Positions 15,652 through 34,895 of a stretch of DNA of 64,000 bases are shown here, one piece after another (the first letter of the stretch is position 1; each line of letters starts with the position of its first letter). The DNA lies in the IMG/VR virus record IMGVR_UViG_3300035208_002255, positions 1 through 64,000 of that record; one strand, 5' to 3'. The notes beneath the pieces were generated by a model. The model was given only the letters and a program-made list of their open reading frames with translations. It searched no databases and was not told the origin of the DNA. Made by a program: the position numbers and the translations under genes. The stretch is from a virus (Duplodnaviria > Heunggongvirae > Uroviricota > Caudoviricetes).

Positions 15652-15652
15652 A

Positions 15653-16438: not shown

Positions 16439-16443
16439 CTGTT

Positions 16444-18000
16444 TTACATCTCCAAGATTTGGAACTCAGTTCGACGATTCCTTGCAAGGCAGACGGGAGT
16501 GTCTTCATTACAAGCGGGCTTGCTAGGTCCGTTACCAACAACAATGAAGCGGTTGGTATCGAAACCATGCTTTTGCACAAGATAGTCTACCACAGCTTGA
16601 GCACGTTGACGAGAAATTTGAATGTTAACTGCAGCAGATCCAGTCTTGTCAGTGTTACCCTCAACTCGAATACGAGATGTGGGGAACGCCTTCAATTGCT
16701 CAACAACCTTATCATCGATGATAGTCTGAGAATTCTCATCCAAGGTTACAGAACCATGAGCAAACGAAATCTTAACCGGCTTAGAAGCGACTGCATGAGC
16801 CGTAACATCGCGCTGAGTCGGAGCCGTAAACGTAGGCTTAGCCTCGGCAGCAACTTCGCCAGGAACCTGGAGAGAGCTAATGAACGAAGTATCAGCAACT
16901 ACATTCCAAGGTAGAGACTTGCTTGCGAGATTCAGACGACCGTAAACGGTAGTCATCTTCTCATAGATGCTTCGACCAGTTACACCAGCATACGAAGAGT
17001 TGAGACCGTAGAAGTCCTTGTTGTCGCCAAGGGTCGTGAGACGCACATTACCAAGAGACGCAAGAGCAAACTCTTTGGTAACATTCTGAAGGCCCTCAGA
17101 GAGGATCTGGGCCGCACGTTGCTTCGCAGCATCCGAACCGTTGATCTCAACAGCACCACGGAGCCAACCTTCAACCAGCTTCTTCAGATCAGCCTTGTGT
17201 GCATTGTAGTAAGCTTCCTTGACCATGAAGCCATCTGCAATGATGTTCGCCGCCTGCTTAGTGCTAACAAGCACCTTAGCTGCACTCACAGATTTCACAC
17301 AATCAGCATCATCCGGAGACCACACAACAGCTGCATCAACCTGTCCAGCCTTGAATGCTGCAGCTGCATCGATAGCACTGGGAACCTTGACAATGTTCAC
17401 ATCCATGATGCTAAGGCCACCCATATCTAACATCCACAACAGGAAGGTGTGAGACGGAGTTCCTTCAGCAACAGCAATCTTCTTTCCCTGAAGGTCAACA
17501 ACAGATCCAATGTTACTCTTAGTAACAATCGCATCACCACCACGAGACCAGTCAGCCTGGAAGAGGAACTTCACATTCTCGCCGTAATTGCCAGACTCAG
17601 TTGGGAAGGCGTCAACAGTCACCCACATAAGATCCATTGCACCAGACTTGAATGCCGCACGAGAAGCAGCGAAGTCATCCATCACGGAGAAGTTCACACA
17701 GATACCGTCCTGACGAAACTTGGAGTTCGCGTTATCTTTGAACCCATTGTTCCAGTACTGACCGCCGGCATAACCAGGCCATGTCACGACACCAACATTA
17801 ATACATCCGTTTCCAGCTGCGGAAGTTCCGGAAACAGATCCAGAAGCTCCAGGACCAGCCATCAGGCCAGAGACATCTTGTTGTCCCTTACCCTGAGGAA
17901 GAATGTACGGAGCACCAAACTTGTACCCAACGAACATAAATGTTGCGATGAGTGCAAGAATAACAATCTTACCACCAGCCTTAATCTTTACCTTAGCCAT
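16444..18000 (-). CDS. ABC substrate-binding protein (SsuA/TauA/NMT1-like) fused to C-terminal OmpA-like domain
   Basis: N-terminal transmembrane anchor, PBP2 fold, C-terminal NTDKTGSAAVNIQISRQRAQAVVDYL...NRRTEF OmpA signature. Confidence 0.65.
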   Translation of the reverse strand: MAKVKIKAGGKIVILALIATFMFVGYKFGAPYILPQGKGQQDVSGLMAGPGASGSVSGTSAAGNGCINVGVVTWPGYAGGQYWNNGFKDNANSKFRQDGICVNFSVMDDFAASRAAFKSGAMDLMWVTVDAFPTESGNYGENVKFLFQADWSRGGDAIVTKSNIGSVVDLQGKKIAVAEGTPSHTFLLWMLDMGGLSIMDVNIVKVPSAIDAAAAFKAGQVDAAVVWSPDDADCVKSVSAAKVLVSTKQAANIIADGFMVKEAYYNAHKADLKKLVEGWLRGAVEINGSDAAKQRAAQILSEGLQNVTKEFALASLGNVRLTTLGDNKDFYGLNSSYAGVTGRSIYEKMTTVYGRLNLASKSLPWNVVADTSFISSLQVPGEVAAEAKPTFTAPTQRDVTAHAVASKPVKISFAHGSVTLDENSQTIIDDKVVEQLKAFPTSRIRVEGNTDKTGSAAVNIQISRQRAQAVVDYLVQKHGFDTNRFIVVGNGPSKPACNEDTPVCLARNRRTEFQILEM

Positions 18001-18002
18001 GA

Positions 18003-19034
18003 TTATCCTTTATTGTTGAAGAAGCTCGCCATTGCAGACGAAGTTTGTGTTTGGGTTTCGTATCCGGTATATTCTGGCAATGCTTGGGTTTCAGTTCCAG
18101 TCGTTGCAATTCGAACCTTACCAACATTGCGCTTGTCTTCGTAACTCAACAGGGAACCATTCTGCTCGAAACTTTCCAACATTGCAAGTCCTTTTTCATC
18201 CCAGACTCCGTTTTGCAGATCAACGTTCATCATGAAGCCTTCGGACAACTCCATGAAAGTCTCCATCTCCCCGAGTTTATTGGCAATGTCTTCGGCAAGG
18301 AATTCGGCCGATTGCTCGAATAGTTCCTTTGCTTCCGAACCGGCAACCAAAACTTCGGCGGACTTCATTGCCTTGTGCGCAGCCTTGACAGACTTGTATT
18401 CCATTTCCAAAATACGAATCTGATCTGCAGTATCATCACGAAGGAACGAAACAGAGTTCCGCATCTTCATAAGAATACGACCAAGGAACTCCATCTTCTC
18501 ACTGATGGTTTGAAGCTTCTTGATGAAATCCTGAGAACGCGCCGCCTTTCGAGCATTTGCAGCAATAGCTACTTGATTATTATTCTTCTTGGCAGCATTC
18601 GCCATATGCATGGCATCCTCTGCAATTTGCCTCTCTTCAGCAATGGTACGATCAAGCTTCTTCTTCTGACCATTTAGCTTGCCGATATTATCAGCAATGG
18701 CTTGAAGACGCTCATCCATGTCATCAAGGTAATTCTTGAGAATACCAATCGGATCAATAGTGATAAAGAAACTAGTTAATGCGCGCATTGCACTCTTGAA
18801 CATTGCTCCGGCAAGTGCTCGTACCTTGTTATTCATCACCAATGCAATAAGAGCAAAGAGTGTACCACCAAGGAATGCGGCATATAAAGTGTTAGCTAGA
18901 GCTGCAATAATGAATGGCATCAGATAGTTTCCAGCAAATAGGAAACCAAGGATACCAATGAAAATGAAGATCATTCCAGTGCGCCCCTCAGGACGCTCGA
19001 AGAAACCTTTTACCTTACGTTGCATGTCTTCCAT
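18003..19034 (-). CDS. membrane-anchored coiled-coil protein
   Basis: Two N-terminal transmembrane helices, then a long heptad-rich region. Confidence 0.45.
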   Translation of the reverse strand: MEDMQRKVKGFFERPEGRTGMIFIFIGILGFLFAGNYLMPFIIAALANTLYAAFLGGTLFALIALVMNNKVRALAGAMFKSAMRALTSFFITIDPIGILKNYLDDMDERLQAIADNIGKLNGQKKKLDRTIAEERQIAEDAMHMANAAKKNNNQVAIAANARKAARSQDFIKKLQTISEKMEFLGRILMKMRNSVSFLRDDTADQIRILEMEYKSVKAAHKAMKSAEVLVAGSEAKELFEQSAEFLAEDIANKLGEMETFMELSEGFMMNVDLQNGVWDEKGLAMLESFEQNGSLLSYEDKRNVGKVRIATTGTETQALPEYTGYETQTQTSSAMASFFNNKG

Positions 19035-19045
19035 GATAATTCCCC

Positions 19046-19729
19046 TTATGCGACAACAATGTATGTTTCGATCTTTTGCTTATCGCCTTGGAGTTTACCA
19101 GAGACGAAATTATAGGTTGCCTCAAAAGAGGCGGCAGTCTGTTGAATATTGAGTCGTTCACGACCAATCTCGGAATTGATCTCAAGAGCTTCTTGTTGCT
19201 TTGCAGCAATGGCAGCTTGTGCTTCTTGAATTTGCTGCAACAGAGTTTGGATCTCCGCTTCTTTAGCAGTCTTAAGGTCTTCACGCTTTGTGACTTCACG
19301 AGCGTTCATCTGATCAACCTGAATTTGGAATTCCTTCTTTTTGGAATCCAAGATACCTTGGTAATGATCGATGGCTTTTAAAAGACCATCCTTTGTAAGG
19401 CCCATTGTGGATGCAGTAGTGAAGACTGCAATATACTTCTGGTTTTCCGGCAGTGGAGCGCTTGCCATTGCCGCCAACGCGTTTCGGAACTCGATATAAT
19501 CGAATCCTGGAATGTTAGCTTCTTCAATTGCCTGTGAGAGAAAATTGACCATCTTCTCATCAACAGCCCCGGGAATAGCGGGAGCTGCAATTTGAACAGT
19601 TGCAGGTTGAGTTGGCGGAACTACAGATGTTGCCGCAGCATATCCCGGAGCAGGTTGAGCAGGCTTCTTCTCCTGCGGGGGAGGAGCATTCTCAACTTCA
19701 ACAAACATACTTGCTAATTTGCCAAACAT
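19046..19729 (-). CDS. proline/alanine-rich coiled-coil protein
   Basis: N-terminal PPPQEKKPAQPAPG low complexity, then a coiled coil. Confidence 0.4.
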   Translation of the reverse strand: MFGKLASMFVEVENAPPPQEKKPAQPAPGYAAATSVVPPTQPATVQIAAPAIPGAVDEKMVNFLSQAIEEANIPGFDYIEFRNALAAMASAPLPENQKYIAVFTTASTMGLTKDGLLKAIDHYQGILDSKKKEFQIQVDQMNAREVTKREDLKTAKEAEIQTLLQQIQEAQAAIAAKQQEALEINSEIGRERLNIQQTAASFEATYNFVSGKLQGDKQKIETYIVVA

Positions 19730-19731
19730 TT

Positions 19732-20238
19732 CTACCTCTTTAATGCCCGAAGTAGTTCAGGCTTCTTTAGTTGTCCAATATCACAGCAGTACTTCTCTCC
19801 GAAACCAAAATCTTTCTTTGGTAACTTGATAAGTGCTGTGTGAGTTATCCAGCCAATGTCTTCGAATCCAGTCTCAACAGAACCCAGAATAACTATGTAG
19901 ATATCAGCCCAACGTTGGGGTTCATTAGGATTAACAATCAGATGTCCCTTATCTCTGGGCTGTCCATCCTTCTGAAGACCCAACCATACCACCTCTACGG
20001 AAAGAGGTAAAGTGAAATCGGATCCTCCATCTCCCTTTTTCCCAACTGTCGCATCGAACGGCTGATCATACTCTTGAGCTGCGAAGTATTCCGCAGCAGT
20101 GGCATTGATGTCATTATCAATGGAACACTCAGAACCATCAGATCGATAACCAGAAATACCAACAGCTCTCTTTGATAGGTACCGAGCTTCAGCTAGTGCT
20201 TTTACCAGACGAAGGGTTGTATCGTCAAGCTTTTTCAT
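19732..20238 (-). CDS. hypothetical protein
   Basis: 168 aa ORF. Confidence 0.4.
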   Translation of the reverse strand: MKKLDDTTLRLVKALAEARYLSKRAVGISGYRSDGSECSIDNDINATAAEYFAAQEYDQPFDATVGKKGDGGSDFTLPLSVEVVWLGLQKDGQPRDKGHLIVNPNEPQRWADIYIVILGSVETGFEDIGWITHTALIKLPKKDFGFGEKYCCDIGQLKKPELLRALKR

Positions 20239-20606
20239 TTAACTCTCCGAAAAGAACTTCCTCGACCATTATCAACTCTTCCATCTGCGGTCATAACGGT
20301 TAATCCTTGAGCTTTTGCTTTTTTAATGTATTCATCATGAGCTTCTGGAGTAAATCCTTTTTTACGTTTTGGCTGATCGCTTGCGGGCAAAGAAACGGGT
20401 GCAACCGCAACACTACTCTCACCATTTGTCATGGTTTCGGTATCAATTGCAAACCCAAATTTATCTATACTAGGGTTCGAACTTGAGTTAAGCGGTAGTG
20501 TTACTTCTGGACTTGTAAAGTAAGTCTCAAAGAATTGCTGCGCTTTATCCCTAGACTCTTTCCATCGTTTTTCGTAAAGATCATCAATCTCTTTTAGATA
20601 ACTCAT
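20235..20606 (-). CDS. hypothetical protein
   Basis: 123 aa ORF. Confidence 0.4.
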   Translation of the reverse strand: MSYLKEIDDLYEKRWKESRDKAQQFFETYFTSPEVTLPLNSSSNPSIDKFGFAIDTETMTNGESSVAVAPVSLPASDQPKRKKGFTPEAHDEYIKKAKAQGLTVMTADGRVDNGRGSSFRRVK

Positions 20607-20614
20607 ATTCCCTC

Positions 20615-20650
20615 CAAGAAAAAAGGGGACGGGATAAACCCGTCCCCCTT
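20615..20650 (-). terminator. Rho-independent terminator
   Basis: Hairpin GGGGACGGGATAAACCCGTCCCC followed by a U-run on the minus strand, just after the flotillin-like gene stop. Confidence 0.7.
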
Positions 20651-20668
20651 TGGACTAAACAATTTAAC

Positions 20669-22972
20669 TTAGGTTGCCTTTTCCATCAGAGTCTTGTTAC
20701 CAGTCAGGTATTGAAGTAGTGCGAGTGACATGAGTCCACTCTGATCCTTCTCACCAGAAGAACCACCTCCAACATACACATCAGGAATGAGCTTTAGCTT
20801 GTTACTAGCAATTCGCTCCACAACCTGAATCTGACCGAAGACCTCATTACCCATAGCTTGAACCTGAAGCTTGTAAGCTTCAGCATTGGACTTACCTTGT
20901 TCTAGGATAACGAGAGCTTGTGCAAGACCCTTCTTCTCGATAGCTTCTGCGTCCGCAACTGCGTTGACCTTAGTTGCTTCAGCGTCAGCACCTGCCTTCA
21001 AACGTGTTGCCTTCGCAGCACCCTCAGCACGAATCTCGACAGCACGAGCATCACCAGTGGATTTCTCGATCTCTGCATTTGCAAAGTTCTTCGAGATTTC
21101 AACACCACGCTCTGCCTCTACAACCTTGGGCTGCATATTAGCCTGAGCCTTAGCATTTTCAAACTGACGGCGCTCTTCCTGAGCTTGCTTCTGAGTGGTG
21201 AAGGTCATCTTCTCTTGCTCAGCAATTTGTCGATCTGTAACTGTACGAGTCAGCTCAGTGGGAAGAACAACATCTGCAATCATCGTATCCTTGGATTCGA
21301 TGTGGTGAATGCGAAGCACGCTCTGGATATGTTCCTTGGCGCGCTCTTGCAGTTCAGCACGTTTGGTGTACAAATCCAATGCCTTAACGGATTGTGCTGC
21401 GTTACGGAAGTGAGATGAGATTGCGGGTTCGAGAACCTGCGAAATCATGTTGTCTACAGATCCTAGGTTTGCAACAACCTTCGGAGCGTCTGACATTGCG
21501 ATATGGATAATAACAGAGACATCCATATTCGCATTAAACGCATCAGCGGTACGCAGAGTGATGGTTTTCAGATTGGAATCCAAAGCATGAGCGCTGGACT
21601 CGTTGTCTGCCCAATTCAAAAGAATCTGAGTTGTAGGCACCTTATCAACCTTACAGACGCGAGTGTTGATTGGATGCTTGCCAGGTCCAAGAGGCTCAGC
21701 CCAAATACCCTTCTTACCAGTCTGGACAATCTTCGCGTTCACGTCCGCGTTTGTGGTATCTTCACCTTCATCACCAACGAATGAGGTTACAACACCACAT
21801 TCACCAATGCAGACCTCAACCATTGGAACTTGTTCAATCATTGCGAACCAAGGATTGATAGCATAGTTACCAGAGCGAAGAACCGGAATCTGCAGACCCT
21901 TCTGACCCTTTTCAGCAAGAAATGCAGCGGCATTTTGGAAGTTATTATGAACCTCGATGGATACTTCATTAGCTGCAATCTTGGATGCATCGATAATTGG
22001 ACGACCTTCAAGGATAGTTACAATACCGATAGCCTCTGGTCCAATATAGACCCAAGGAACAACCTTCACGATGTTAAACAGGGCTGTATTGATACGATAC
22101 GTTCCTGGCATGAGAATCTCAAGCTGATGACCTTTCTGACCACCATTCTGCAAGAATGCATTACCATTCTCAAAGTTTGAATGCCCATCAACTTTTTTAC
22201 CAAGAAGAGATCCGTCAGGAATACGAGATCCATCCATTGCAGAGATAAGGCCCATATGACCGTTCGGAATCACGGTGACAGGCTTATTCTCAACATGGAA
22301 CAATCTTGTATTGATACGGTAGTTTCCAGGAGGAAGAACAGCAATCTGAGGACCCTTTTGACCACCATTCTTAAGGAACAAGTCTGCGTCCTGGAAGTGA
22401 TCGCAATCAACGGGTTCAGCGAAAATACGACCAACAGCACAAGCCTGACCTGCAATAGATTCAACGAGACCAATTTCATCTTCTCCGATGATAATAGCCT
22501 TCTCAATATTAATCACAAATAGATGTGGGTTAATCTGATATTGGCCAGGAGGCAAGATGGCCAGCTGGGGCCCTTTCTCTCCACCATTCTTCAGGAATGC
22601 TTCACCATCTTGAAACAGATTACAATCAATGGTCTTAGCAAAGAATTGTCCAGTAGGCATTGGCTTACCGGTAATTGCAGTAATAATACCGATCTGGTGA
22701 GTGCCAATGTTGGTGAACTTATGTTTTGTAACAGTGTTGATAAAAGGAATGAAGAAGTGGATACCAGGGCCGAGCGTACGGGCCTGAACACCAACCTCAT
22801 TTCCAATAGCAACGGTACGACCATCTGTCATGGTCTTACCGAAATATTTGCGTTCGAACGTAATGAATTCATCACCACCAGCAATAGCAAAACTGGTGAA
22901 GAAGAAAACCAGTCCGACGATTGCCCCGATAATGACGAGGTAATGCGCCAAAATGAAATTCAGAATAAACAT
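20669..22972 (-). CDS. flotillin/SPFH (band-7) family protein with five N-terminal ~55-aa tandem repeats
   Basis: N-terminal transmembrane segment; repeats FLKNGG.KGPQ...PG.Y.IN..LF; SPFH core; C-terminal AEAEA/EAIEKKG flotillin-type repeats. Confidence 0.65.
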   Translation of the reverse strand: MFILNFILAHYLVIIGAIVGLVFFFTSFAIAGGDEFITFERKYFGKTMTDGRTVAIGNEVGVQARTLGPGIHFFIPFINTVTKHKFTNIGTHQIGIITAITGKPMPTGQFFAKTIDCNLFQDGEAFLKNGGEKGPQLAILPPGQYQINPHLFVINIEKAIIIGEDEIGLVESIAGQACAVGRIFAEPVDCDHFQDADLFLKNGGQKGPQIAVLPPGNYRINTRLFHVENKPVTVIPNGHMGLISAMDGSRIPDGSLLGKKVDGHSNFENGNAFLQNGGQKGHQLEILMPGTYRINTALFNIVKVVPWVYIGPEAIGIVTILEGRPIIDASKIAANEVSIEVHNNFQNAAAFLAEKGQKGLQIPVLRSGNYAINPWFAMIEQVPMVEVCIGECGVVTSFVGDEGEDTTNADVNAKIVQTGKKGIWAEPLGPGKHPINTRVCKVDKVPTTQILLNWADNESSAHALDSNLKTITLRTADAFNANMDVSVIIHIAMSDAPKVVANLGSVDNMISQVLEPAISSHFRNAAQSVKALDLYTKRAELQERAKEHIQSVLRIHHIESKDTMIADVVLPTELTRTVTDRQIAEQEKMTFTTQKQAQEERRQFENAKAQANMQPKVVEAERGVEISKNFANAEIEKSTGDARAVEIRAEGAAKATRLKAGADAEATKVNAVADAEAIEKKGLAQALVILEQGKSNAEAYKLQVQAMGNEVFGQIQVVERIASNKLKLIPDVYVGGGSSGEKDQSGLMSLALLQYLTGNKTLMEKAT

Positions 22973-23055
22973 TCTTGTCCTTGTGTTTGGGGGTAATTCC
23001 CAGTAGCCGACAGTGTGGCATACTCAGTTTCCCAAGTCAAGAACTTTCTGTTTGG

Positions 23056-23129
23056 TATCCCCGATTGGACTCGAACCAACATTAAGACAGTTTAGGAAAC
23101 TGTTGCCTAATCCTTTAGACTACGGGGAT
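23056..23129 (-). tRNA. tRNA-Arg (anticodon CCT)
   Basis: Acceptor ATCCCCG/CGGGGAT, T-loop TTCGAGT, anticodon stem ACAGT/ACTGT, loop TTCCTAA. Confidence 0.6.
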
Positions 23130-23369
23130 ATATTAGGAAAACGTTAACAAAATAATGAGTTCCTTGATTCTAGCGTCTAATCTGGTTAGGCGGCACAATC
23201 AAAGAACCCATCATCAACGCTGTTGTTTCTGGGTCTATCTTTTCGACCTTGGCCCTTCTCAGGTTGAACTGTTCTATTTTTCAATCTTGTTGGATCATTC
23301 TTTGCTAGGATTGCAAGGATTGTATTCCTTGGCTTTCTAGGCTTGCGTTTCTTATTAGACATAATACTC

Positions 23370-23636
23370 CTATTCAATTTCATCTACATTTACTTCCATT
23401 TTAATGGTTCCCTTTTTAGAGATTGTATGAAATGAGAACCGTTTTTGGTTTACGGTTAAGTCTTTTACCAGTTCAAGAAATTCTGTTTTCTCTGAACTTT
23501 TAAATGCATAAACTTCTAAATACTGTTGAGATCCTGGACCCCAACCTGTATCTATGGACATTTCGCTTGATACAAATACAACATACTTGGCATCAAGCCC
23601 ATCGGTTTCTTGAACGAGAAATTGATTCCATCCCAT
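23370..23636 (-). CDS. hypothetical protein
   Basis: 88 aa ORF. Confidence 0.35.
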   Translation of the reverse strand: MGWNQFLVQETDGLDAKYVVFVSSEMSIDTGWGPGSQQYLEVYAFKSSEKTEFLELVKDLTVNQKRFSFHTISKKGTIKMEVNVDEIE

Positions 23637-23997
23637 ATTAGCACCTCATTTCGTTCCTTGTCAATCTCCAACGAACCAGTTTTGCCAGCTGTCTATGGGA
23701 CATGTCTAATAAGTCATATCTCAATTTAAGATATAGGGCAAGCCGAAGAAGGTTCTCATGAGAAGCCTTCTTCAACTGACATTTTGGAATGTCATATAAC
23801 CCGATATACATTACTTTCCATGTTTGGCAAGACAATCAGTGGATATGCAAGTTCCTTCATGATCAATCTGAATTGCACCACAACCTTCACAAAGGGCAAT
23901 TGGAAATAATCCATTTTTGGTATCTTCTGGTAAAGATAATCCTGCAAGATCTTTTGAGTCCTCACCAAAAATTTTAATACTACATTGCTTACAGAAA

Positions 23998-24234
23998 TCA
24001 GCCATGTTTTCTTTCTATATGTACGACCCTCACATTAGGATCAATTGTGGCGGTCAATTGCAGTTCATGGGGTCCACTGTAAAAGTCCTCAGGAATGTCT
24101 GAACCCGTCTCATAGAGAGGGCGTACTGGTCTGCTCTCATTAATGTGAACAGCGCCCCCTTCAATAACATTCCACACTTGCTTGTTAATAACAGCACCTT
24201 TATCATCAAGTTGTTCGTATGTAATTCTATGCAT
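23998..24234 (-). CDS. hypothetical protein
   Basis: 78 aa ORF. Confidence 0.35.
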   Translation of the reverse strand: MHRITYEQLDDKGAVINKQVWNVIEGGAVHINESRPVRPLYETGSDIPEDFYSGPHELQLTATIDPNVRVVHIERKHG

Positions 24235-24904
24235 GTTTTAACTCCTCTCTCAAATCAGTCAATACAAAACCTAGCAAATTCAAGCCCTTCCACATTAATG
24301 GATCTTTAGCTGCTTTATCATCTTCTGCAAGACCGATACCCCAAATTCTATCAACAGGTGAAGCTTCTACAAGAATCTTTGATCCGGTACCAAGAAGAAT
24401 AGCTTTGTATTCATTATTTTGTGTGAACTTGTATCTATTACCAGAAAGAACTATATTGTATCTGTGTTCGATCCACACCTCTTCATCATAGTTTTTAACT
24501 TGGCGTCCAAGATCTTTTGCAATTTTAGGATAATCTGCTTCAAGAATCTTTTGAATGGTGTCCTCATCACCAAAGAGTCGAGCCTTTTCAACCATCATCC
24601 AGTGTTCAGCAGTTTTATAAAACACATCATCGACTGTGAAACCTTGATTTGCCCACTGAGAGAATGGACCTTTCCAAAATAATTCAAACTCGAACTTTTC
24701 TCCAGCTTTGATTCTTTCTTGTAGGTTTGTTACCTTTTTAAAGTCTTTCATAATTTCCTTTGGTGTTTCAAAAGCACCGCAAAAACATTTATATATGAGG
24801 CAAGCTCCGCCCCATTCATCTTTATTAAAGACGCAGCATTCATCATCAAGGCAATGTTCACTGCGTGCATGACCACACTTACACAAATCATCATTATTAT
24901 TCAT
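24227..24904 (-). CDS. NADAR (YbiA-like) domain protein with N-terminal zinc ribbon
   Basis: AEHWMMVEKARLF and ...GLNLLGFVLTDLREEL align to the E. coli YbiA signature blocks (SEHYFQAQKF ... NRLGYLLMELREQL). Confidence 0.7.
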   Translation of the reverse strand: MNNNDDLCKCGHARSEHCLDDECCVFNKDEWGGACLIYKCFCGAFETPKEIMKDFKKVTNLQERIKAGEKFEFELFWKGPFSQWANQGFTVDDVFYKTAEHWMMVEKARLFGDEDTIQKILEADYPKIAKDLGRQVKNYDEEVWIEHRYNIVLSGNRYKFTQNNEYKAILLGTGSKILVEASPVDRIWGIGLAEDDKAAKDPLMWKGLNLLGFVLTDLREELKHA

Positions 24905-25392
24905 AAATTACTAGGATCAATAATACTGATCTTGTATTCACGCCCTCTATTAATTTCTTTCTCGGCATAACGAATGGTTCCAAAAGTTCCGCCTTGTCTA
25001 ATGCCATTCCAAACACCTAAAAGCTGATCTGAATTATCTACAATCCACCGATCTCTAAGATACATTTTCTCAGGAGCATAAGGTCCGGGAGATACTACTA
25101 CAACCTCAATTGCTTGGTTAAGTAGCTCTCTGAATTTTTGCTTAGACCTCTCCGGCCACTGAGAGTCTTGACCATCACAAGGCATCGCAGCAATGAATGG
25201 AATACCCAAATCAATTGCTACGTAAGCTGCATACTGATCTACGCCAAGAGCCATTCCTGAAATGATCTTTTCAGGATTCAACTCTTTGATTTTATCAGTT
25301 AAAGCTTTGTATACCTTTTCATATGTTGGGTTTGGTATATCGTAACTGCAATTAAGTCCAGGAGGACGATGTCCAGTTATACCCAAAATCAT
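24901..25392 (-). CDS. SLOG/YoqJ-like (DUF1273) Rossmann protein
   Basis: N-terminal ILGITGHRPPGL; 4-nt overlap with the NADAR gene. Confidence 0.5.
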   Translation of the reverse strand: MILGITGHRPPGLNCSYDIPNPTYEKVYKALTDKIKELNPEKIISGMALGVDQYAAYVAIDLGIPFIAAMPCDGQDSQWPERSKQKFRELLNQAIEVVVVSPGPYAPEKMYLRDRWIVDNSDQLLGVWNGIRQGGTFGTIRYAEKEINRGREYKISIIDPSNL

Positions 25393-25628
25393 CCTGGCAC
25401 TCCATTGTATCCATTTTCTTCGATAACTCGAATAATTTCATCAACAGTTTTACGAGCAATAGGATCAGCAGATTGCATTCTGTTCCTACGTTCGAGTTCT
25501 AGGATTTTGGCATCCAACCGTTCGATTTCTTCAAACAGTTGACATACATGAGATGGGTATAGTTTAGCTCTATCTATAGTGCTAAGCCTATCTGAGTTAA
25601 AGTAAATATCAGCTATCTCTGGTCTCAT
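25389..25628 (-). CDS. hypothetical protein
   Basis: 79 aa ORF. Confidence 0.35.
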   Translation of the reverse strand: MRPEIADIYFNSDRLSTIDRAKLYPSHVCQLFEEIERLDAKILELERRNRMQSADPIARKTVDEIIRVIEENGYNGVPG

Positions 25629-25911
25629 ATGAATCCAATAGTGGTATGGAATGATCGGTTGAAGAATCTAGTCTTTCAACTATTTTGACCTTGTTCTTTT
25701 TTTGATCGATGAAAGAACCATCCAATGTATAAAACTTAACACACTTTCCGGGGATTATTCGACACCAACCGGCAGATGTTTCTAAAGATCCAACATTGAG
25801 TTTGACTTTTATCCAAAGATCTTTATCTTCTATCTTTTTAGGTTTTATAGTAATCGTTCCTAGAAAGATAACAACAGAAACAATTGCTGTTAGTAATCCC
25901 CAAAACCACAT
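25609..25911 (-). CDS. small membrane protein
   Basis: N-terminal hydrophobic helix. Confidence 0.35.
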   Translation of the reverse strand: MWFWGLLTAIVSVVIFLGTITIKPKKIEDKDLWIKVKLNVGSLETSAGWCRIIPGKCVKFYTLDGSFIDQKKNKVKIVERLDSSTDHSIPLLDSYETRDS

Positions 25912-25949
25912 TGAACTATTCCCAAGGTGATGATGTTTTGTTCCATGAT

Positions 25950-27344
25950 CTACCTAAAACCCAAAGCTTTCATTATAGAATTCTTACCAAGAATTTCTTC
26001 TTCATTTCCACTGTACTTTTCACGAAGTACATCAATCTCTTTAGCGCGTTCAAAGACTTCATCAATTGTAGATCTTTGCAACTGAAGACAGAGTTCTTTA
26101 ATATCTGCTCCAGTTAAGCCTTCGGAAGATTCAATACATTTGATCAGATCAACATCTGAAAGAGTTATCTTCATTTCGGAAGCATATCTTTCAAAGATTT
26201 CTTTCCGATCACTTTCTGAAGGTTCTGGTACTTCGTAAATCTGATCGATTCGGCCTTTACGAGTAACAGCTTCATCATACAAAATTCCAGAGAATGTATT
26301 GGCAGTAAACAAGAAGTTTGTATGTGGATTCTTGTCCTTTACAGACTCTAGCATTTTAAGTACTGCTTTGATGTAAGGTGGGCCATCATTTGATCTATCA
26401 CAGTCATCAAAGATGATGAAGTCTGGTTTCATTTGAAGAAATAAAGATTCCATTTCCTCAATGATTGGAACAGTATCAAAGCCAGAAATAATGAAGACTC
26501 TGCCTTCAACACTATCAACTATAGAGTTAACAATTCCGGTTTTACCAGTACCCGGCTTGCCGATAAGTAAATACCCGCGAGAGAGTTTGTTCTCCCTGAA
26601 ATATTTGTAATCATCCTTCAGTTTCTCAATTAACTTGTTAGATGATCCGAAAATCTTCTTCTGAGTTAGTTCAGTTTTTACATAAGTAAGGTTACCATCA
26701 TCAGCTTCAAGCTGAATGACACGACCTAGTTTAGACCAAAGCATATCGAGGATATCATCTTTAGTTATACCCTTTGTAACAAGAACTTTTTTGGTAATCT
26801 CAGATTCTCGCTCTTGCACCCAGTAAAGAAAACCATCTTTGTTGATTGGGTATCTGTACAACCAATATGGAGGAGAGAAAGGTGCATGGTCTTGAGGTCT
26901 GAAGACCTCATCTGGCTCAACTATCTGTTCGAGCAAATCTCCAATGATCTCTTCAGAGATCCCGAAATCAATAGTTGTAAGATCTTTACGCTCAAGAATT
27001 CTAGATCTATTGAAATCTATATTCCTAGCAAGTCTCCAAGCTAGAGCTAGCGTTTTTGTTCTAGCAATTAGCGGACTATCATTCTTGGACGGAATGAAAT
27101 GCCAATGATCGATAATTACCTCTACATAAGACGCGATGGTATTTAAGGATGGTAGTCCACAGAAAATTGAGTTTTTATCTATAATTTTTTGGATTCCAAA
27201 ACCTATTGTAGAATCATCAATATCAACTTCCCTGCGAGAAATAGCTTTGAGAGGTGGTGCTAAATTTTTCACATTCAAACTTTCTGGCGATTCACCAAAG
27301 AATTCAATCAGAATTAAAGAGGTGAGCCGCGCATTCCTCGACAC
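25950..27344 (-). CDS. AAA+ ATPase
   Basis: Walker A GKPGTGKT, Walker B IIFDDCDR, arginine finger region. Confidence 0.7.
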   Translation of the reverse strand: MSRNARLTSLILIEFFGESPESLNVKNLAPPLKAISRREVDIDDSTIGFGIQKIIDKNSIFCGLPSLNTIASYVEVIIDHWHFIPSKNDSPLIARTKTLALAWRLARNIDFNRSRILERKDLTTIDFGISEEIIGDLLEQIVEPDEVFRPQDHAPFSPPYWLYRYPINKDGFLYWVQERESEITKKVLVTKGITKDDILDMLWSKLGRVIQLEADDGNLTYVKTELTQKKIFGSSNKLIEKLKDDYKYFRENKLSRGYLLIGKPGTGKTGIVNSIVDSVEGRVFIISGFDTVPIIEEMESLFLQMKPDFIIFDDCDRSNDGPPYIKAVLKMLESVKDKNPHTNFLFTANTFSGILYDEAVTRKGRIDQIYEVPEPSESDRKEIFERYASEMKITLSDVDLIKCIESSEGLTGADIKELCLQLQRSTIDEVFERAKEIDVLREKYSGNEEEILGKNSIMKALGFR

Positions 27345-27349
27345 CGATA

Positions 27350-27553
27350 TTAGTTGCTTTCTCTCATTTTCTTAAGCTGTTCTTTAAGAACCATTCTTGC
27401 AAATTCTATATCTCTAAACAATGGTTGAGGTACTTTTAAATGCATCATCAAGACATCTCCATTTGAATTCTTTAAAATGGTACTTGGTCTTGCCTTGCAA
27501 TGCTGGATGGCATCTAACAGATCATCAAACGGTTTATCATTTACGAAATACAT
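27350..27553 (-). CDS. hypothetical small protein
   Basis: 67 aa ORF. Confidence 0.3.
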   Translation of the reverse strand: MYFVNDKPFDDLLDAIQHCKARPSTILKNSNGDVLMMHLKVPQPLFRDIEFARMVLKEQLKKMRESN

Positions 27554-28436
27554 CTTGTGGCTTTCCTACTAAGAGTAGAGAATCTTTCGACTTTTCAAAC
27601 GATACTTCATCACCAAGGCTTACTGGCACAACTTTATGATCTCCATCAATGTACAATGCTGATGAAGACATCTTCGAACGAGCATGTACAGAACATCCCT
27701 CATCGATTTCAATCATTCGTAGACCAGGAGCTTGATCTGGTCTGTGATACAGTTCCCGAACACAAAGCTGTAAAACCTTTGAATCCAAAGGCATAGGATC
27801 GAACCCAGCTGAGCGTCTAGCTCCTGTGGAACCAGCGGCTGGCCCAACCCAAAATCCGCTAGATTTCTGAGTTTCATTTGTACGGAAATAACTTAAATAA
27901 GCAGCGCATTTCTTTTCCAAAACATATGATGATGTTGTAGCCGGGTTTGTATGACAAAACAATACGTCATTCAATACGCGGTCAGCAACTGTAACACCAT
28001 TTTTCTTTACCAACATTCTGGTAAGAACTGTTGATTTAAAGTTCTTAGCAATTACTTGACTAATACTATCTTCAACATTTGCAGCAGTTGAAGTGCAGAA
28101 GAAACCAACGCTTGTTTCCGGATCTGAGTTTACACCAAGAACAGGGATTGTATTATGAACGTTATGAGAGGCACCAAGAAGAGTACCATCACCACCAACG
28201 GTCACAATGAGAGCAACCTCCGACAACTCAGCAATAAAGCTAGCGTTTGGAATATCAATATTGAATACAGTACCAAACTTGTTTGCAGCTTTAATTACCG
28301 CTTCTAGTGCTTCATAATGCCTATCGTGAGATGCTTTCCATCTGGTGATGATGCTTTTATCATCAAACTCAGCATTATCTTCCAAAACTTTGGAATACGT
28401 TGTCTGCTTGCTAACGACAATGATTCTGGGCTTCAT
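27537..28436 (-). CDS. nadK: NAD+ kinase
   Basis: GGDGTLL motif, GVN..G..GFF, C-terminal strand region typical of NadK/PpnK. Confidence 0.7.
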   Translation of the reverse strand: MKPRIIVVSKQTTYSKVLEDNAEFDDKSIITRWKASHDRHYEALEAVIKAANKFGTVFNIDIPNASFIAELSEVALIVTVGGDGTLLGASHNVHNTIPVLGVNSDPETSVGFFCTSTAANVEDSISQVIAKNFKSTVLTRMLVKKNGVTVADRVLNDVLFCHTNPATTSSYVLEKKCAAYLSYFRTNETQKSSGFWVGPAAGSTGARRSAGFDPMPLDSKVLQLCVRELYHRPDQAPGLRMIEIDEGCSVHARSKMSSSALYIDGDHKVVPVSLGDEVSFEKSKDSLLLVGKPQDVFRK

Positions 28437-29044
28437 AAACTCTTGACTTTGTTGAGAACAATATCAGCTGAACGAAGCGTATCTTCTAGAGGGCCTGAAT
28501 TATCAATCACATAGTTAGCATACTTGAGACGTTCATCTGAACTTATTTGGGAATGAATTCTGTTTAGAACATCATCTTTTGACAAATGAGTATTTCTATC
28601 CAAGACTCTTTGGATTTGAATATCCAAGTCAATATGAACAACAACAATGGGCCTGTAGTTTTCGAAATTGCTTTTCTCGATTAGTAAAGCGTTGTCATAA
28701 CAAGCTAGTTCATATCCTTTTAATTCAAGTACCGAAATCTCATCGGACATCAATTGTCCGATTACTGGAAACATAATGACTTCCAAATCTTTCAAACGAT
28801 CTTTATCACTGAAGACAACAGACCCCATCTTTTTACGGTCAATGACTCCATCGCTTCGAAAAACAACATCTCCAAATACACGTCTGATTGATTCAAGCGT
28901 ATTTAAACCAATTGCTGTATTAGGATCTACAGCTTTACGTGATAAGATATCCGGATCAATAATAGGTAGACCTTGCTGTGCCCAATGTTTTGACACAGTA
29001 GACTTGCCACATCCAATCCCACCTGTAAGACCAAAGATTTTCAT
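28433..29044 (-). CDS. coaE: dephospho-CoA kinase
   Basis: GLTGGIGCGKST P-loop characteristic of CoaE; 203 aa. Confidence 0.75.
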   Translation of the reverse strand: MKIFGLTGGIGCGKSTVSKHWAQQGLPIIDPDILSRKAVDPNTAIGLNTLESIRRVFGDVVFRSDGVIDRKKMGSVVFSDKDRLKDLEVIMFPVIGQLMSDEISVLELKGYELACYDNALLIEKSNFENYRPIVVVHIDLDIQIQRVLDRNTHLSKDDVLNRIHSQISSDERLKYANYVIDNSGPLEDTLRSADIVLNKVKSL

Positions 29045-30078
29045 TTGCTGTTATCTGAATCAAAAAGGTCTGCTGTATTCTCTAGAATGGTAGATAGTTG
29101 CTCATTTATTCCAAAGCGCTCCTTGTTATGAGTAATGCTTTTTAGAATGTTACCATCCGCATGACGTTGCGAACTAGCAAACCAATCACAAAACATTTCT
29201 ACAATATCAACAAGTGTCATATCACTAATATATGAATCTTCTTTTGTCTTTAACAAAGTTCCTGTAAATGTTAAATCTAAATGCTTTCCACCATTATTAA
29301 TACAATTCCATATTGCTGAAGCTCTTGCTTTATCATAACCCCTTTCTCTTAGTTCTTTTTCCATTTTATTAATTCCAAGAGTGGTTATGTCTAACTCTTC
29401 GCAAGTTACTTCATATTTTATATTTGCTTTTTTCAGATCATTATCATATGCATGAATTTGATTTTCAGATGAAGTTACCCATTCTAAATTAGAAATGTGA
29501 TTATCATCTTTAATACCATTTTTATGATTAACTTCTGATTTTTTATCATCGTTATCAATAAATGCTTCAGCTACTAAACGATGTACCATTGCATTTTTTC
29601 GATTATCTCCATCTTGCAACTGTAACCTGCAATAACCTTTAGGTGTTATATATTGCTTTAAAAGAATTCCTTGTTTGAAACATGAACCTGTTGGGCCTGA
29701 TCTATCAACAATTCTATTTTTACTTCTAACTCTTCCATGATTTGAAACTTCATGTGAAGTTTCAAATCCAACAACCGGTCGCCATTCTTCTATATTTTCA
29801 AAGAATTCTGGATGATGACGATTTTTGGCGTAATGATGGTCGAGAGCCACCTTCATTTCAGCTCTGCATTTATTGTATTCGTCAGATCCATACGTCATAC
29901 CTTTTAGACGATCTGTGTAAATAGCAAACACTGGAGCTTCAACATCACCAAGTTTTGACTGATCATGTTGTTCGCCTCGTTTTAAAAGTTCAACAGCAAA
30001 GACTCTAAGATATCGGCGAACGTTATCGATGTGATTCCGGGTTTCTTCGTTTGATGCTAATTCTTGTTGAGTTTTCAT
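29041..30078 (-). CDS. HNH_3/NUMOD4-type homing endonuclease with N-terminal HD-like segment
   Basis: NUMOD4 WRPVVGFE..YEVSNHGRVRS, HNH_3 HRLVAEAF...VNHKNGIKDDNHISNLEWVT; N-terminus H(x23)HDQSK...DHHYAKNRHH. Confidence 0.6.
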   Translation of the reverse strand: MKTQQELASNEETRNHIDNVRRYLRVFAVELLKRGEQHDQSKLGDVEAPVFAIYTDRLKGMTYGSDEYNKCRAEMKVALDHHYAKNRHHPEFFENIEEWRPVVGFETSHEVSNHGRVRSKNRIVDRSGPTGSCFKQGILLKQYITPKGYCRLQLQDGDNRKNAMVHRLVAEAFIDNDDKKSEVNHKNGIKDDNHISNLEWVTSSENQIHAYDNDLKKANIKYEVTCEELDITTLGINKMEKELRERGYDKARASAIWNCINNGGKHLDLTFTGTLLKTKEDSYISDMTLVDIVEMFCDWFASSQRHADGNILKSITHNKERFGINEQLSTILENTADLFDSDNSK

Positions 30079-30129
30079 ATAATTTTGAACACCACCATTC
30101 TAGGCTACCAGATTTTACGCAAAAAGCAA

Positions 30130-30160
30130 ACGCAAAAAGGCGGGTACTTCGGTACCCGCC
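30130..30160 (-). terminator. Rho-independent terminator
   Basis: GGCGGGTAC-TTCG-GTACCCGCC hairpin plus a U-run after the AAA ATPase gene. Confidence 0.65.
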
Positions 30161-30182
30161 AATTTGCCGTTCAACCAATCAC

Positions 30183-31712
30183 TTACTGACTGACCTTGTC
30201 GATATCTCGGCGCGTCAAGTGATGGTCAGAACTCATCAAAGGCATTCCCTTTTCAGATTCTTTCTGATACGTCGAAGCATCCACCACAATAGCCGGATTC
30301 ATGCGAACCTTAGCTGCATGAACATTTCCGTCAGCAATGATCTGCGCAGCCTTTTCACGTTCGGAACGATCATCCTTCTTCTTGGGCTCCAGCATTTCCA
30401 TGTGACGTTTCATGGTGCGAGCAGTGATTTCGATGTCTTCGCCAGTGAGCTTGACTTCACCGCCGCCATGAGATCCAACTCGACGAATGGCTGCCAGCTT
30501 GGAGCGCTCCACAACCTCACGAATGAGGGCCGGGATAATGCCAGCCAAAACAGCACTTGCTTCATCGAGGTTCGTACCCCCAGCCAGATCCGAACCTGCG
30601 TAGAACCGAATGAGGCGCTGAGCCGCATCCGCATCCGGCGCACGAACGGAGATCACAGTATCCAAACGACCGGGACGAAGCATCGCTTGAGTGATCTTCT
30701 CCAAGTGATTCGTGGTGAGGACCGTGATAATCTCTACACCCTTAGTATCAATACCATCAAGGGCATTAAGGATATCATTGACCTCATTATCACGACGATT
30801 CGGATCATTGAGAATTTGATCGATATCCTCTGCGAAAATTATTGCAGGTTGGTATCGAGAAGCGAAATGATATGCCTGAGCAAGGCATGTCACATCTTTG
30901 AGATAGATGAATGTCCATCCATTCTCTTTAGCAAGCGTTGCACCCGCAGCGGCCGTAAGCGTCTTACCGGTTCCATAAGGGCCTTCGAGTAGAATACCTC
31001 GCTTCAGAGGAATGTTATGAGTACGGCACATCTCGGTGTGCCGAATGGGAGTGAACATAGAGATGTCCACTTCTTCCTCAGTAGCTGCACTAAAGATGAC
31101 TTGTTCGGGTCGAATATAACCAACCTTAGCAAAGCGAGGGAATGTATCCTCTAAAGAGTTACAATCCCCCACATCTCTGAAGTCCGTTTCGATTGCATGA
31201 CCCTTATAGATAGAGTTGCGTAGCAACTCTTCCTTCACAAGATTTGCGATCTTGTCAACTAAGTATCGGTGCTTACCCTTAACTTCACCAAACAACTGGA
31301 AGACCAAATGGTCATTCTTAATAGCATAGCCAGGCTTGATCCAACCATCAACTCCAGGGATCATAAGTCGTCCCATTGGGAGAGATTCTTTGTTACCAGG
31401 AGATGTCTCAATACCAGTGTATTGAGGCTTCTGATTTCCAAAGAACCCTGGCGTACCAGTAGCTGAAACGAAACCGAATTCATTCTTTAAAACCCTAAAG
31501 AATGCAACGATGCCCTCAGCAACCTCGGCATCCAATATATGCTCAACACCGATAACCTCATCCTCTTCCTTCTGCTTGAGCTGAAGTGCTCTGATTGCGG
31601 TATCCAGGTCTACTTCTTCTGGAACAATAAGTTTGGTCCCCTTTCGCTCCATGCTTATGTCACGAAGGAGTGCGTTCTGCTTGTCTTGTTTTTCTTTTTC
31701 TTGTGGCGTCAT
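30183..31712 (-). CDS. AAA+ ATPase (second)
   Basis: Walker A GPYGTGKT, box II and sensor motifs. Confidence 0.7.
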   Translation of the reverse strand: MTPQEKEKQDKQNALLRDISMERKGTKLIVPEEVDLDTAIRALQLKQKEEDEVIGVEHILDAEVAEGIVAFFRVLKNEFGFVSATGTPGFFGNQKPQYTGIETSPGNKESLPMGRLMIPGVDGWIKPGYAIKNDHLVFQLFGEVKGKHRYLVDKIANLVKEELLRNSIYKGHAIETDFRDVGDCNSLEDTFPRFAKVGYIRPEQVIFSAATEEEVDISMFTPIRHTEMCRTHNIPLKRGILLEGPYGTGKTLTAAAGATLAKENGWTFIYLKDVTCLAQAYHFASRYQPAIIFAEDIDQILNDPNRRDNEVNDILNALDGIDTKGVEIITVLTTNHLEKITQAMLRPGRLDTVISVRAPDADAAQRLIRFYAGSDLAGGTNLDEASAVLAGIIPALIREVVERSKLAAIRRVGSHGGGEVKLTGEDIEITARTMKRHMEMLEPKKKDDRSEREKAAQIIADGNVHAAKVRMNPAIVVDASTYQKESEKGMPLMSSDHHLTRRDIDKVSQ

Positions 31713-32336
31713 TTCATTTTAATTTCTAGATGGAAAGACATCTTCTTTAGAGAAATTGTCATACATTAAGGAAATGTGACTAAGTTGGTATGGCTGAACG
31801 CTTAAAGGTCTAACCATAGTTAGAACTTCCATCCAGCCATGAACCGCACAGGATTCGAACCTATATTTCCTACACTTAGCATTGTCCGGACAATGCTAAA
31901 TGTGGCGTTCCTAAACCATTTAAACTAGCGGCACGAGGAGTTGAAATCTATCACATCGAAACTTGATGTCAAGAACTTTTTGTAGGACGAGTCAGGGTTG
32001 AACGATAACTTTTAAAACTCTGACAACTGCTGGCGTGAACCGCTAGCTATCCTGTTTCGAGATGCGAAGTTACTACTAGAAGTTCTGGAAGTCAAGCTTT
32101 TTCTTTTGGGGCCTACTGTTTCAGGGATTCAATTGGGCCACCATTTGGAACGAAAACAAAATCACGAAAACCACTGTTCCATAACTGCATCATAGGTGAT
32201 TTTCTCACCATTGCTAGATGTAGCGTTGCCTTCCAAAATGACACCCTCAAACCAAAGGTGAATGCTAAACCAAACCTTATCCTTTGGTAATCTACGAATT
32301 GCGTCACCAACTAACGCCGACTCCAATCCAATATCT

Positions 32337-32741
32337 CTATTTTTCATTTTGTACCTTATGTATCTTTTCCAAGAGTCTTTCCCGAATAGCTTGGACATCA
32401 ACTCCATCTTCCTTAAGCTCTTGGTTAATCTCTTCATCAGACATATTGGCAACATCTTCAGCTGCCAGTTCAAATATCCTGTACAGCACTATACTCTGCT
32501 CTTCCCCTGTCAAAGCGCCAACTTTTTGACGAAGACTACTCCGAAAACTATCCGCGATACGCTCATGTATAGCAATTGCTTCCCTGAATTCTTCTGGTGA
32601 ATTGATCTTGTTAGCATCTTTACGTGGTTCAACCCCATGACATTTATCACAGATTGGAGGAATTATAACCATGCAGTTTGTTTGGTATTCTTCACCGCAT
32701 AAAGAGCACGTTTCTTTCCTTGGCATGATCATGTGCGCCAA
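32337..32741 (-). CDS. zinc-ribbon protein
   Basis: CSLCG...CDKCH pairs; acidic C-terminus. Confidence 0.4.
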   Translation of the reverse strand: MAHMIMPRKETCSLCGEEYQTNCMVIIPPICDKCHGVEPRKDANKINSPEEFREAIAIHERIADSFRSSLRQKVGALTGEEQSIVLYRIFELAAEDVANMSDEEINQELKEDGVDVQAIRERLLEKIHKVQNEK

Positions 32742-34537: not shown

Positions 34538-34605
34538 ACTGGAATAAATCTAGGACTCGTGCATGGTTCTTTCCTTCACTTTCCGGTACTGTAACTCGGC
34601 TTCCG

Positions 34606-34800: not shown

Positions 34801-34802
34801 TT

Positions 34803-34876
34803 TGGAGCCCCCTGGGAGAATCGAACTCCCATATCCTGATTACAAAACAGGCGCATGACCATAATGCTTAGGGGGC
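34803..34876 (-). tRNA. tRNA-Thr (anticodon TGT) with genome-encoded CCA
   Basis: Acceptor GCCCCCT/AGGGGGC, T-arm GGGAGTTCGATTCTCCC, loop TTTGTAA, 3' TCCA encoded. Confidence 0.7.
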
Positions 34877-34895
34877 GTATTTTTATGTATCTATA

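Follow-up and report, generated by a model that had tools for sequence, protein, structure and literature searches.

A YbiA-type NADAR gene and a YpsA-type SLOG gene as a putative NAD/ADP-ribose counter-defence pair in a huge uncultured phage

Introduction

Phage NADARs are a proven class of counter-defence proteins against DNA ADP-ribosylating toxins, and the locus described here raises the question of whether a NADAR gene that overlaps a gene of the SLOG superfamily serves such a purpose. The two genes lie on the minus strand of a 64,000-nucleotide (nt) stretch of viral DNA (IMG/VR record IMGVR_UViG_3300035208_002255, positions 1 to 64,000; the whole of this stretch is referred to below as the window). 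One is a 225-amino-acid (aa) open reading frame (ORF; 24227..24904, minus strand), in which a Cys/His-rich module is fused in frame to a NADAR domain; the other is a 163-aa SLOG gene of the YpsA/YoqJ type (24901..25392, minus strand). An earlier inspection of the letters by a model (the sequence-only reading), which named no strand, had described the two genes as a candidate anti-defence pair acting on nucleotides or ADP-ribose. On balance we favour a related account, in which they form a phage counter-defence pair directed at nicotinamide adenine dinucleotide (NAD) and ADP-ribose chemistry, of putative function and set within a longer co-directional gene array.

Results

The NADAR domain and its active site

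The identification of 24227..24904 as a NADAR gene, made in the sequence-only reading, was confirmed, since the profile scores lie far beyond chance. Residues 78-223 match Pfam PF08719 with E=1e-50 and 172.6 bits (cut-off 35.1), and the NCBIfam model TIGR02464 (riboflavin biosynthesis intermediates N-glycosidase) is matched at 160.5 bits (cut-off 73.7); the corresponding PHROGs family is phrog_1017 (unknown function). The motifs singled out earlier, AEHW..EKARLF, NLLGFVLTDLREEL and ILGITGHRPPGL, are all found. The NADAR core runs from Met52 to the TAG stop codon (aa 52-225; 24227..24751, minus strand), the point at which the proteins of relatives start, and this part of the protein is modelled by AlphaFold2 with block means of 76-98 and a predicted local distance difference test (pLDDT) value mostly above 90.

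The nearest solved structures are those of the Phytophthora nicotianae NADAR (PnNADAR, PDB 8bau, E=9e-23) and of Escherichia coli YbiA (PDB 2b3w, E=4e-9). With a profile built from 14 NADAR homologues these values become 1e-30 and 4e-16, and no other NADAR structure in the PDB was retrieved at E<=10, so that no DarG1-type NADAR structure was matched. Residues E100, K107, K130, R134, W144, R148, E180, D185 and W188 align with E43, K50, K75, R79, W89, R93, E125, D130 and W133 of PnNADAR, the roles of which are taken from Schuller et al. (2023, PMC11543638); the numbering of the 8bau chain is +2 relative to that publication, an offset that holds at 9/9 positions. All nine of these ADP-ribose-contacting or catalytic residues are intact in the window protein and invariant in the alignment of the 14 homologues (alignment A1). 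The protein is thus, to judge from its residues, an intact YbiA-type enzyme with the full ADP-ribose-binding and catalytic set, and is predicted to be active as an N-glycohydrolase.

The assignment to the YbiA type follows from the position of PnNADAR E125, a subfamily marker that is Glu in YbiA-type proteins, Asp in the DarT1-associated BC4488/DarG1 proteins and His in the T4-type phage NADARs (PMC11543638), since this position is occupied in the window protein by E180, within a VEAS motif. A NADAR of the DarG1/BC4488 type is ruled out by the presence of Glu instead of Asp, and one of the T4 type (AdfN, gp30.3) by Glu instead of His and by the lack of a PF08010 match at E<=0.01. The likeness to DarG1/BC4488 also fails on the neighbouring genes: no ADP-ribosyltransferase (ART) or DarT family was found in general Pfam scans of the ORFs of the 64-kb window (the source of all Pfam negatives on the window given here), the genome itself being at least 169 kb long, or beside the gene in its relatives.

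The window protein resembles PnNADAR and YbiA (PMC11543638, PMC11125620), its best PDB matches, in the nine contact residues and the subfamily Glu; unlike them it is phage-encoded and fused to a mini-domain with the look of a metal-binding module. It also lies outside a LexA operon and has no adjoining YarT-type ART.

A Cys/His mini-protein fused to the NADAR domain

The first 51 residues (24752..24904, minus strand) carry the pattern CxCGH-x4-HC-x5-C-x10-C-x4-CxC, with Cys and His residues at C8, C10, H12, H17, C18, C23/24, C35, C40 and C42. The sequence-only reading had taken this segment for a Cys-rich zinc ribbon. The Cys-rich character stands; the zinc ribbon does not, because such a fold requires two CxxC/CPxC knuckles, of which aa 1-51 contain none, because the segment has no Pfam match even at E<=10, and because the module constitutes a separate protein family. 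In a HMMER search with aa 1-51 over 1.8 billion representative proteins, 9 matches were obtained (E down to 1.6e-12), seven of them small proteins of 56-95 aa (56-64 aa in six cases) and two of them weak, in long repetitive proteins; residues C8, C10, G11, H12, H17, C18, C24, E30, G33, C35, C40 and C42 are invariant. The stand-alone homologues stop just past ..CxC..F(E/T)xP(K)E, precisely where the window protein runs into Met52, and in the two contigs inspected none of the genes for them adjoins a NADAR or SLOG gene. The AlphaFold2 model of the module is uninformative (pLDDT below 50).

Among 2442 NADAR homologues, aa 1-51 are covered by the identical protein only, and the alignments of relatives with 60-77% identity extend over about 75% of the query. 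The relatives in the alignment begin at or near Met52 (MKDF..) or bear unrelated N-terminal extensions, two of them (P0123 and P0124) starting exactly at Met52 (MKDY../..KDFE). An extension common to the family, comparable to the DNA-binding extension of DarG1, was rejected on these grounds. The identical 225-aa protein recurs on 6 metagenome contigs (the three places shown are three different samples), and the in-frame fusion is therefore real rather than a sequencing error. The N terminus is, as far as the homologues indicate, a stand-alone Cys/His mini-protein family fused in frame in this lineage only, that is, a recently fused small gene; that it is a putative metal-binding mini-domain is a reasonable inference. 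The capture illustrates how small phage genes turn into enzyme domains. Because a Shine-Dalgarno-like AAGGA (24756..24760, minus strand, read from the sequence) stands 4 nt before the ATG of Met52 (24749..24751), a 174-aa NADAR without the module can probably also be made, by internal initiation.

A second Cys-rich ORF, of 64 aa (23811..24005, minus strand; phrog_2210, unknown function), is the second gene downstream of NADAR and is unrelated in sequence to the fused module.

The SLOG protein

The adjacent gene had been assigned to the YoqJ/DUF1273 SLOG family in the sequence-only reading, and the profile search agrees: Pfam PF06908 (YpsA) is matched above its cut-off (E=1.9e-16, 60.9 bits against 27.7), and the PHROGs family is phrog_289. 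The AlphaFold2 model (pLDDT 93) finds its best Foldseek match in Bacillus subtilis YpsA (PDB 2nx2), with a template-modelling (TM) score of 0.88, a root-mean-square deviation of 1.7 Å and E=2.7e-13, followed by ShosA, DprA, molybdenum-cofactor carrier proteins and LOG enzymes at TM scores of about 0.55-0.65. The pocket motif GxD/E is represented by G50-V-D52, which aligns with LGVE of YpsA (G53, E55) and is invariant in 21 homologues, as are G7, H8, R9 and P10, G46 and A48, P71, Q75, W79, R113, G135 and T136. The protein is accordingly modelled as a YpsA-fold Rossmannoid protein with the nucleotide-pocket motifs of its family (TGHRP, GxD and GGT).

Three other identities were considered and rejected. 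The catalytic motif of LOG phosphoribohydrolases is PGGxGTxxE; the window protein reads QGGTFGTIRYAE, in which G135 and T136 alone are invariant and the Glu varies, and LOG structures rank far below YpsA. A DprA orthologue is rejected because the NCBIfam dprA model (TIGR00732) is matched at 22 bits against a cut-off of 191, because the SAM domain is missing and because the TM scores are 0.58-0.65, the match to the DprA family PF02481 being a marginal pass (E=1e-8, 35 bits, cut-off 29.6). The ShosTA antitoxin ShosA (PMC11961720) is DprA-like and shares a Rossmannoid SLOG/DprA-like domain with the window protein, to which it is weakly similar in sequence and fold (PADLOC E=2e-7, Foldseek E=5e-7). 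Orthology to it is rejected as well, since the window protein, at 163 aa, is half as long, lacks the N-terminal SAM domain, superposes with a TM score of 0.58 and is much nearer YpsA.

With YpsA and the SPbeta prophage protein YoqJ (Brzozowski 2019, PMC6459960) the window SLOG shares Pfam family and fold; it differs from YpsA in having 25% identity only and no gpsB neighbour. A branch of the YpsA family has been described as 'associated with NAD processing and salvage components' (PMC6459960), a description that the window SLOG fits.

In one relative (L088) the SLOG gene (5440..5940) contains an in-frame TAG at 5725..5727, at the position of window E96, with conservation continuing downstream. 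A recent nonsense mutation, a sequencing error or read-through of the amber codon could each account for it; for comparison, a tRNA-like call of unusual length (95 nt; 31840..31934, minus strand) in the window has the anticodon TTA and would be suppressor-like, reading UAA and possibly, by wobble, UAG. The latter could mean stop-codon read-through or recoding in the lineage, or be a false call.

Conservation of the pair

The source of the window is a huge uncultured phage. Contigs bearing the identical NADAR protein reach 169 kb, and the contig of a relative 234 kb; the window has a GC content of 39.6%, with 97 of its 112 ORFs on the minus strand, and all 37 tRNA genes called by ARAGORN (1014..58968, most amino acids represented) lie on that strand too, a complement typical of a huge phage. 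A megablast search with 23000..28500 returned zero matches in 50,697 phage records, and the closest IMG/VR matches have 48% identity for NADAR and 65% for SLOG; the lineage is uncultured, and the genes of the pair are without close representation in IMG/VR either. The top match of NADAR in the phage collection, CAKLQH020000014.1 (L091), labelled Acinetobacter phage MD-2021a, was dropped as phage context because its neighbours (rpmI, rplT, pheS and pheT) look like a bacterial chromosome filed as phage.

In all of the close relatives fetched (L001-L006 and L088-L090) the SLOG gene lies directly upstream of NADAR, and farther upstream these relatives also keep a NAD kinase gene and an ORF of 67 aa, usually with genes for CoaE and an AAA ATPase. 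For the wider view, the SLOG protein used as a single query sequence matched nothing among viral contigs, and homologues were gathered instead by an alignment-based scan, which yielded 80 IMG/VR loci at 39-65% identity. A NADAR gene lies within 4 kb in 5/80 of these by hidden Markov model (HMM) search and in 7/80 by phmmer; conversely, among 80 IMG/VR NADAR loci there are 9, some of them on redundant contigs, in which a SLOG-like ORF precedes the NADAR gene by 1.6-2.8 kb on the same strand. In one locus (L083) the two domains form a single SLOG-NADAR fusion protein, as confirmed by Pfam. The gene pair pointed out in the sequence-only reading is therefore real as an adjacency; as a conserved partnership it holds in close relatives and in about 6-11% of distant viral loci. 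The linkage of SLOG to NADAR recurs but is facultative. Viral YoqJ-type SLOG genes are in fact most often neighboured by a calcineurin-like metallophosphoesterase gene, found 1-2 kb upstream on the same strand in 22/80 IMG/VR loci (L012, 1780..2466, and 21 others).

The gene array and its junctions

The pair lies in a co-directional array on the minus strand, in the order CoaE, NAD kinase, 67-aa ORF, AAA ATPase, two small ORFs, SLOG and NADAR. The first gene (28433..29044, minus strand) encodes a dephospho-CoA kinase (CoA, coenzyme A; CoaE, PF01121 E=5e-47; TIGR00152 133 bits, cut-off 65.6) and is followed by a NAD kinase-like gene (27537..28436, minus strand; PF01513 E=1e-9; many NCBIfam models for NAD kinases are matched weakly). 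Both kinases phosphorylate the adenosine ribose of ADP-containing cofactors. The 67-aa ORF (27350..27553, minus strand) has phmmer matches in 9 loci, each time directly after the NAD kinase gene, and the two genes together adjoin SLOG in 8 loci. Between NAD kinase and SLOG lies a gene for an AAA+ ATPase (25950..27344, minus strand; PF00004 E=7e-10). A 79-aa ORF (25389..25628, minus strand) immediately upstream of SLOG and a 78-aa ORF (23998..24234, minus strand) immediately downstream of NADAR have no family match.

The composition of the array varies among relatives. NAD kinase is found upstream of SLOG in L004, L005, L088, L089, L010, L011 and L051, and the AAA ATPase gene in L004, L005 and L089, being missing from L088. 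Both the 79-aa and the 78-aa ORF are kept in L004, the former being replaced by other ORFs in L005 and L089. The downstream neighbours of SLOG in L010 and L051, two of the loci with the NAD kinase and 67-aa genes, belong to no informative Pfam families.

The 4-nt overlap between SLOG and NADAR noted earlier exists, as an ATGA at 24901..24904 (minus strand, read from the sequence) that joins the SLOG stop codon to the start of the 225-aa ORF; its value as the translational signature of a two-gene module does not survive comparison. Most neighbours in the array overlap by 4-20 nt (CoaE/NAD kinase 4 nt, NAD kinase/67-aa ORF 17 nt, a 100-aa ORF/79-aa ORF 20 nt, 79-aa ORF/SLOG 4 nt, NADAR/78-aa ORF 8 nt and 78-aa ORF/64-aa ORF 8 nt), and because overlaps are general in the array the one between SLOG and NADAR is not diagnostic. 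Furthermore, the junction varies in relatives: L089 and L090 have the ATGA overlap with nothing inserted, L004 has a 22-nt gap and a different fused extension of 76 aa, and L005 and L006 have a separate, unrelated ORF of 45 aa. Upstream of the array, a terminator-like GC-rich hairpin followed by a T run (30139..30160, minus strand) is a consensus match only, and such sites are no more numerous in the region than expected from shuffling; a promoter scan gave counts no higher than those in shuffled sequence, and no promoter is claimed.

Discussion

Relation to known systems

Both the pairing of SLOG with NADAR and the anti-DarT activity of phage NADARs are already published (PMC9503650, PMC11825919). 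Iyer, Burroughs and Aravind (2022, PMC9503650) reported YpsA-like SLOG domains in viruses, either fused to NADAR and Macro domains or encoded beside them, and interpreted them in the same way. The window agrees with the neighbourhoods in that survey in having the same two families, adjacent and co-directional, in a large phage, and the L083 fusion was recovered here; its genome is also enriched in Nudix, DrHyd and SLOG domains, as in the large phages of that survey, in which NADAR, SLOG, Nudix and Macro domains co-occur. It differs in the array with CoaE, NAD kinase and AAA ATPase (the paper makes no mention of NAD kinase) and in the lineage-specific Cys/His module. What is modestly new is accordingly the conserved array of CoaE, NAD kinase, 67-aa ORF, AAA ATPase, SLOG and NADAR, together with the capture, specific to this lineage, of a stand-alone mini-protein rich in Cys and His as the N-terminal domain of NADAR.

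Phage NADARs of three independent origins counter DarTG1 (AdfN; Johannesman et al. 2025, PMC11825919), the independently acquired NADARs of Bas32 and Bas60 neutralising DarT1 (PMC11825919). With AdfN the window NADAR has in common that it is a stand-alone phage NADAR with a catalytic Glu/Lys pair (E100/K107 here, E36/K43 in T4 AdfN; the catalytic residues of the E. coli C7 NADAR are E88/K95). Unlike AdfN it is not of the T4 type, has no more than about 42% identity to any E. coli phage NADAR in the phage collection, and its anti-DarT role is putative. Biochemically, YbiA-type and other NADARs hydrolyse guanine-linked and, in some cases, cytidine-linked ADP-ribose on DNA and RNA (PMC11543638, PMC11125620, PMC11833690, PMC12945103).

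A counter-defence role for the pair

By analogy with these characterised homologues, the window NADAR would split ADP-ribose from a base at their N-glycosidic bond. That base may be a guanine or cytosine of DNA or RNA that host ADP-ribosyltransferase toxins have modified, or it may belong to a small NAD-derived molecule. The genomic context suggests that the SLOG protein would bind or process a related ligand derived from NAD or ADP-ribose. In that case the two proteins would share one metabolite network as their target, probably at an early stage of infection, and so blunt host immunity based on NAD or ADP-ribose. An anti-defence role of this kind is plausible. The NAD/ADP-ribose theme of the sequence-only reading fits the context, with a NAD kinase in the array and Nudix and DrHyd domains in the window, and it fits the published work (PMC9503650, PMC11825919), which at the same time takes away its novelty. 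A functional link between the two genes is argued for by the L083 fusion and the published fusions (PMC9503650).

Several observations weigh against a dedicated counter-defence pair. The E. coli YbiA and T4 gp30.3 proteins gave no rescue from DarT1 toxicity in a plasmid assay (PMC11125620), so that NADAR specificity in vivo is not predictable from the fold; action against DarT is therefore one option among several, the window NADAR being YbiA-type rather than DarG1-like. The best curated name for the NADAR is that of a riboflavin-intermediate N-glycosidase (TIGR02464). No ligand or activity is known for any member of the YpsA family; a literature search for experiments on YoqJ/DUF1273 or phage SLOG anti-defence proteins found none. 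Adjacency in the close relatives may partly reflect inherited synteny, and beyond that close lineage the two genes lie near each other in about 6-11% of loci only, redundant contigs included. Finally, on one related giant-phage contig (392 kb) NAD kinase, the 67-aa ORF and SLOG are separated from CoaE and NADAR by about 60 kb (L010 versus L171).

In the last of these contigs a CoaE-like ORF lies directly upstream of NADAR (L171), and this arrangement speaks for the best surviving alternative, in which the array would be a module of small-molecule NAD(P)/CoA metabolism that remodels or degrades ADP-containing cofactors or NAD-derived immune signals, such as isomers of cyclic ADP-ribose (cADPR), instead of repairing or de-modifying DNA; NADAR and SLOG would serve to cut N-glycosidic bonds, with the adenosine ribose as the phosphorylation target of the two kinases. 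It is further supported by the persistence of NAD kinase and the 67-aa ORF as the most constant specific partners of SLOG in distant phages (L010, L011, L051 and L088) and by the view that phage NADAR, SLOG, Macro and Nudix proteins mainly target ADP-ribose derivatives of low molecular weight (PMC9503650). However, CoaE and NAD kinase may be mere auxiliary metabolic genes that raise the pools of CoA and NADP, giant phages often retain a gene order in the absence of functional coupling, and no phage NADAR or YpsA-type SLOG has been demonstrated to act on a signalling molecule. We regard this alternative as a minority possibility but as the main rival; the linkage to NAD kinase and CoaE gives some tilt toward its small-molecule NAD(P)/ADP-ribose role.

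It is rather improbable that the two genes are unrelated neighbours, NADAR being a YbiA-like housekeeping N-glycosidase that acts on reactive intermediates of the riboflavin pathway and SLOG a DprA/ShosA-like mediator of single-stranded DNA (ssDNA) binding or recombination, or an orphan ShosA-like antitoxin. The TIGR02464 score above its cut-off would be expected of such a NADAR, and the SLOG matches to PF02481 (35 versus 29.6 bits) and to ShosA (PADLOC as above; PDB 8zva and 9vzo, E=3e-4), a homologue in small phages annotated as an ssDNA-binding protein beside a primase/helicase (for example PP99) and the lack of a nearby NADAR in most viral SLOG loci all point in the same direction. Yet no riboflavin-pathway family was found among the window ORFs of at least 100 aa, the SLOG protein is far nearer YpsA (TM 0.88) than DprA or ShosA (TM about 0.6) and has neither a SAM domain nor a dprA score near its cut-off, and the fusions link the two domains.

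A wider proposal, which we put forward as speculation of low probability, unites CoaE, NAD kinase, the 67-aa ORF, SLOG and NADAR in one phage module that would disarm immune signals derived from NAD, or toxic derivatives of ADP-ribose, by 2'/3' phosphorylation of the adenosine ribose (the kinases) and by N-glycosidic cleavage (SLOG and NADAR), the fused Cys/His mini-domain adding targeting to nucleic acids or to a partner. The shuffled yet recurring linkage of these genes in related and distant giant-phage contigs supports it. Least probable of all, and very doubtful, is a NADAR that serves as self-immunity factor or regulator for a phage-encoded ADP-ribosyltransferase, reversing or limiting the ADP-ribosylation that the phage itself carries out on nucleic acids or proteins, after the manner of the ART-NADAR pairs DarT1-NADAR and YarT-YbiA: YbiA-type NADARs do act as antitoxins of ART toxins (PMC11125620), but no ART family was detected in the Pfam scans of the window, which covers 64 kb of the genome of at least 169 kb, or next to the gene in any relative examined.

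The counter-defence reading thus remains the one we prefer, and current understanding stays unchanged unless biochemistry proves unexpected. Viral YpsA-type SLOG proteins are without demonstrated activity, and the pair, with its NAD kinase and CoaE, makes a reasonable test case for SLOG function.

Other features of the window

Elsewhere in the window, further domains of the nucleotide/NAD network are encoded on the minus strand, namely two Nuc_deoxyri_tr2 (DrHyd-like) domains, a Nudix domain, a CYTH domain and a 'polymorphic-toxin / Swiss-army-knife' DSP-type phosphatase (289..756, 41378..41875, 1898..2350, 34896..35426 and 59432..59899, some of these coordinates having been mapped by motif or paralogue match rather than from a per-protein Pfam table). 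An HD gene is also present. A SET-domain (methyltransferase-like) ORF lies at 4568..4894 (minus strand), with a weak Pfam match on a sibling contig and a SET match of E=6e-6 in the window-wide scan.

The segment 13421..22972 (minus strand) is an island of membrane and stress-type genes, comprising an SPFH/Band-7 protein of 767 aa, a PspA-like protein, an OmpA/NMT1 substrate-binding fusion, an ABC permease and an ABC ATPase. The island is variable, since it is missing from the sibling contig L002 and has another composition in L005. The window contains homing endonucleases and one intein: the intein, with a LAGLIDADG endonuclease, splits the ABC ATPase of this island, and a DUF5662 gene (29041..30078, minus strand) is split by an insertion with NUMOD4 and an HNH homing endonuclease, the DUF5662 protein of L004 being 158 aa long and free of the insertion.

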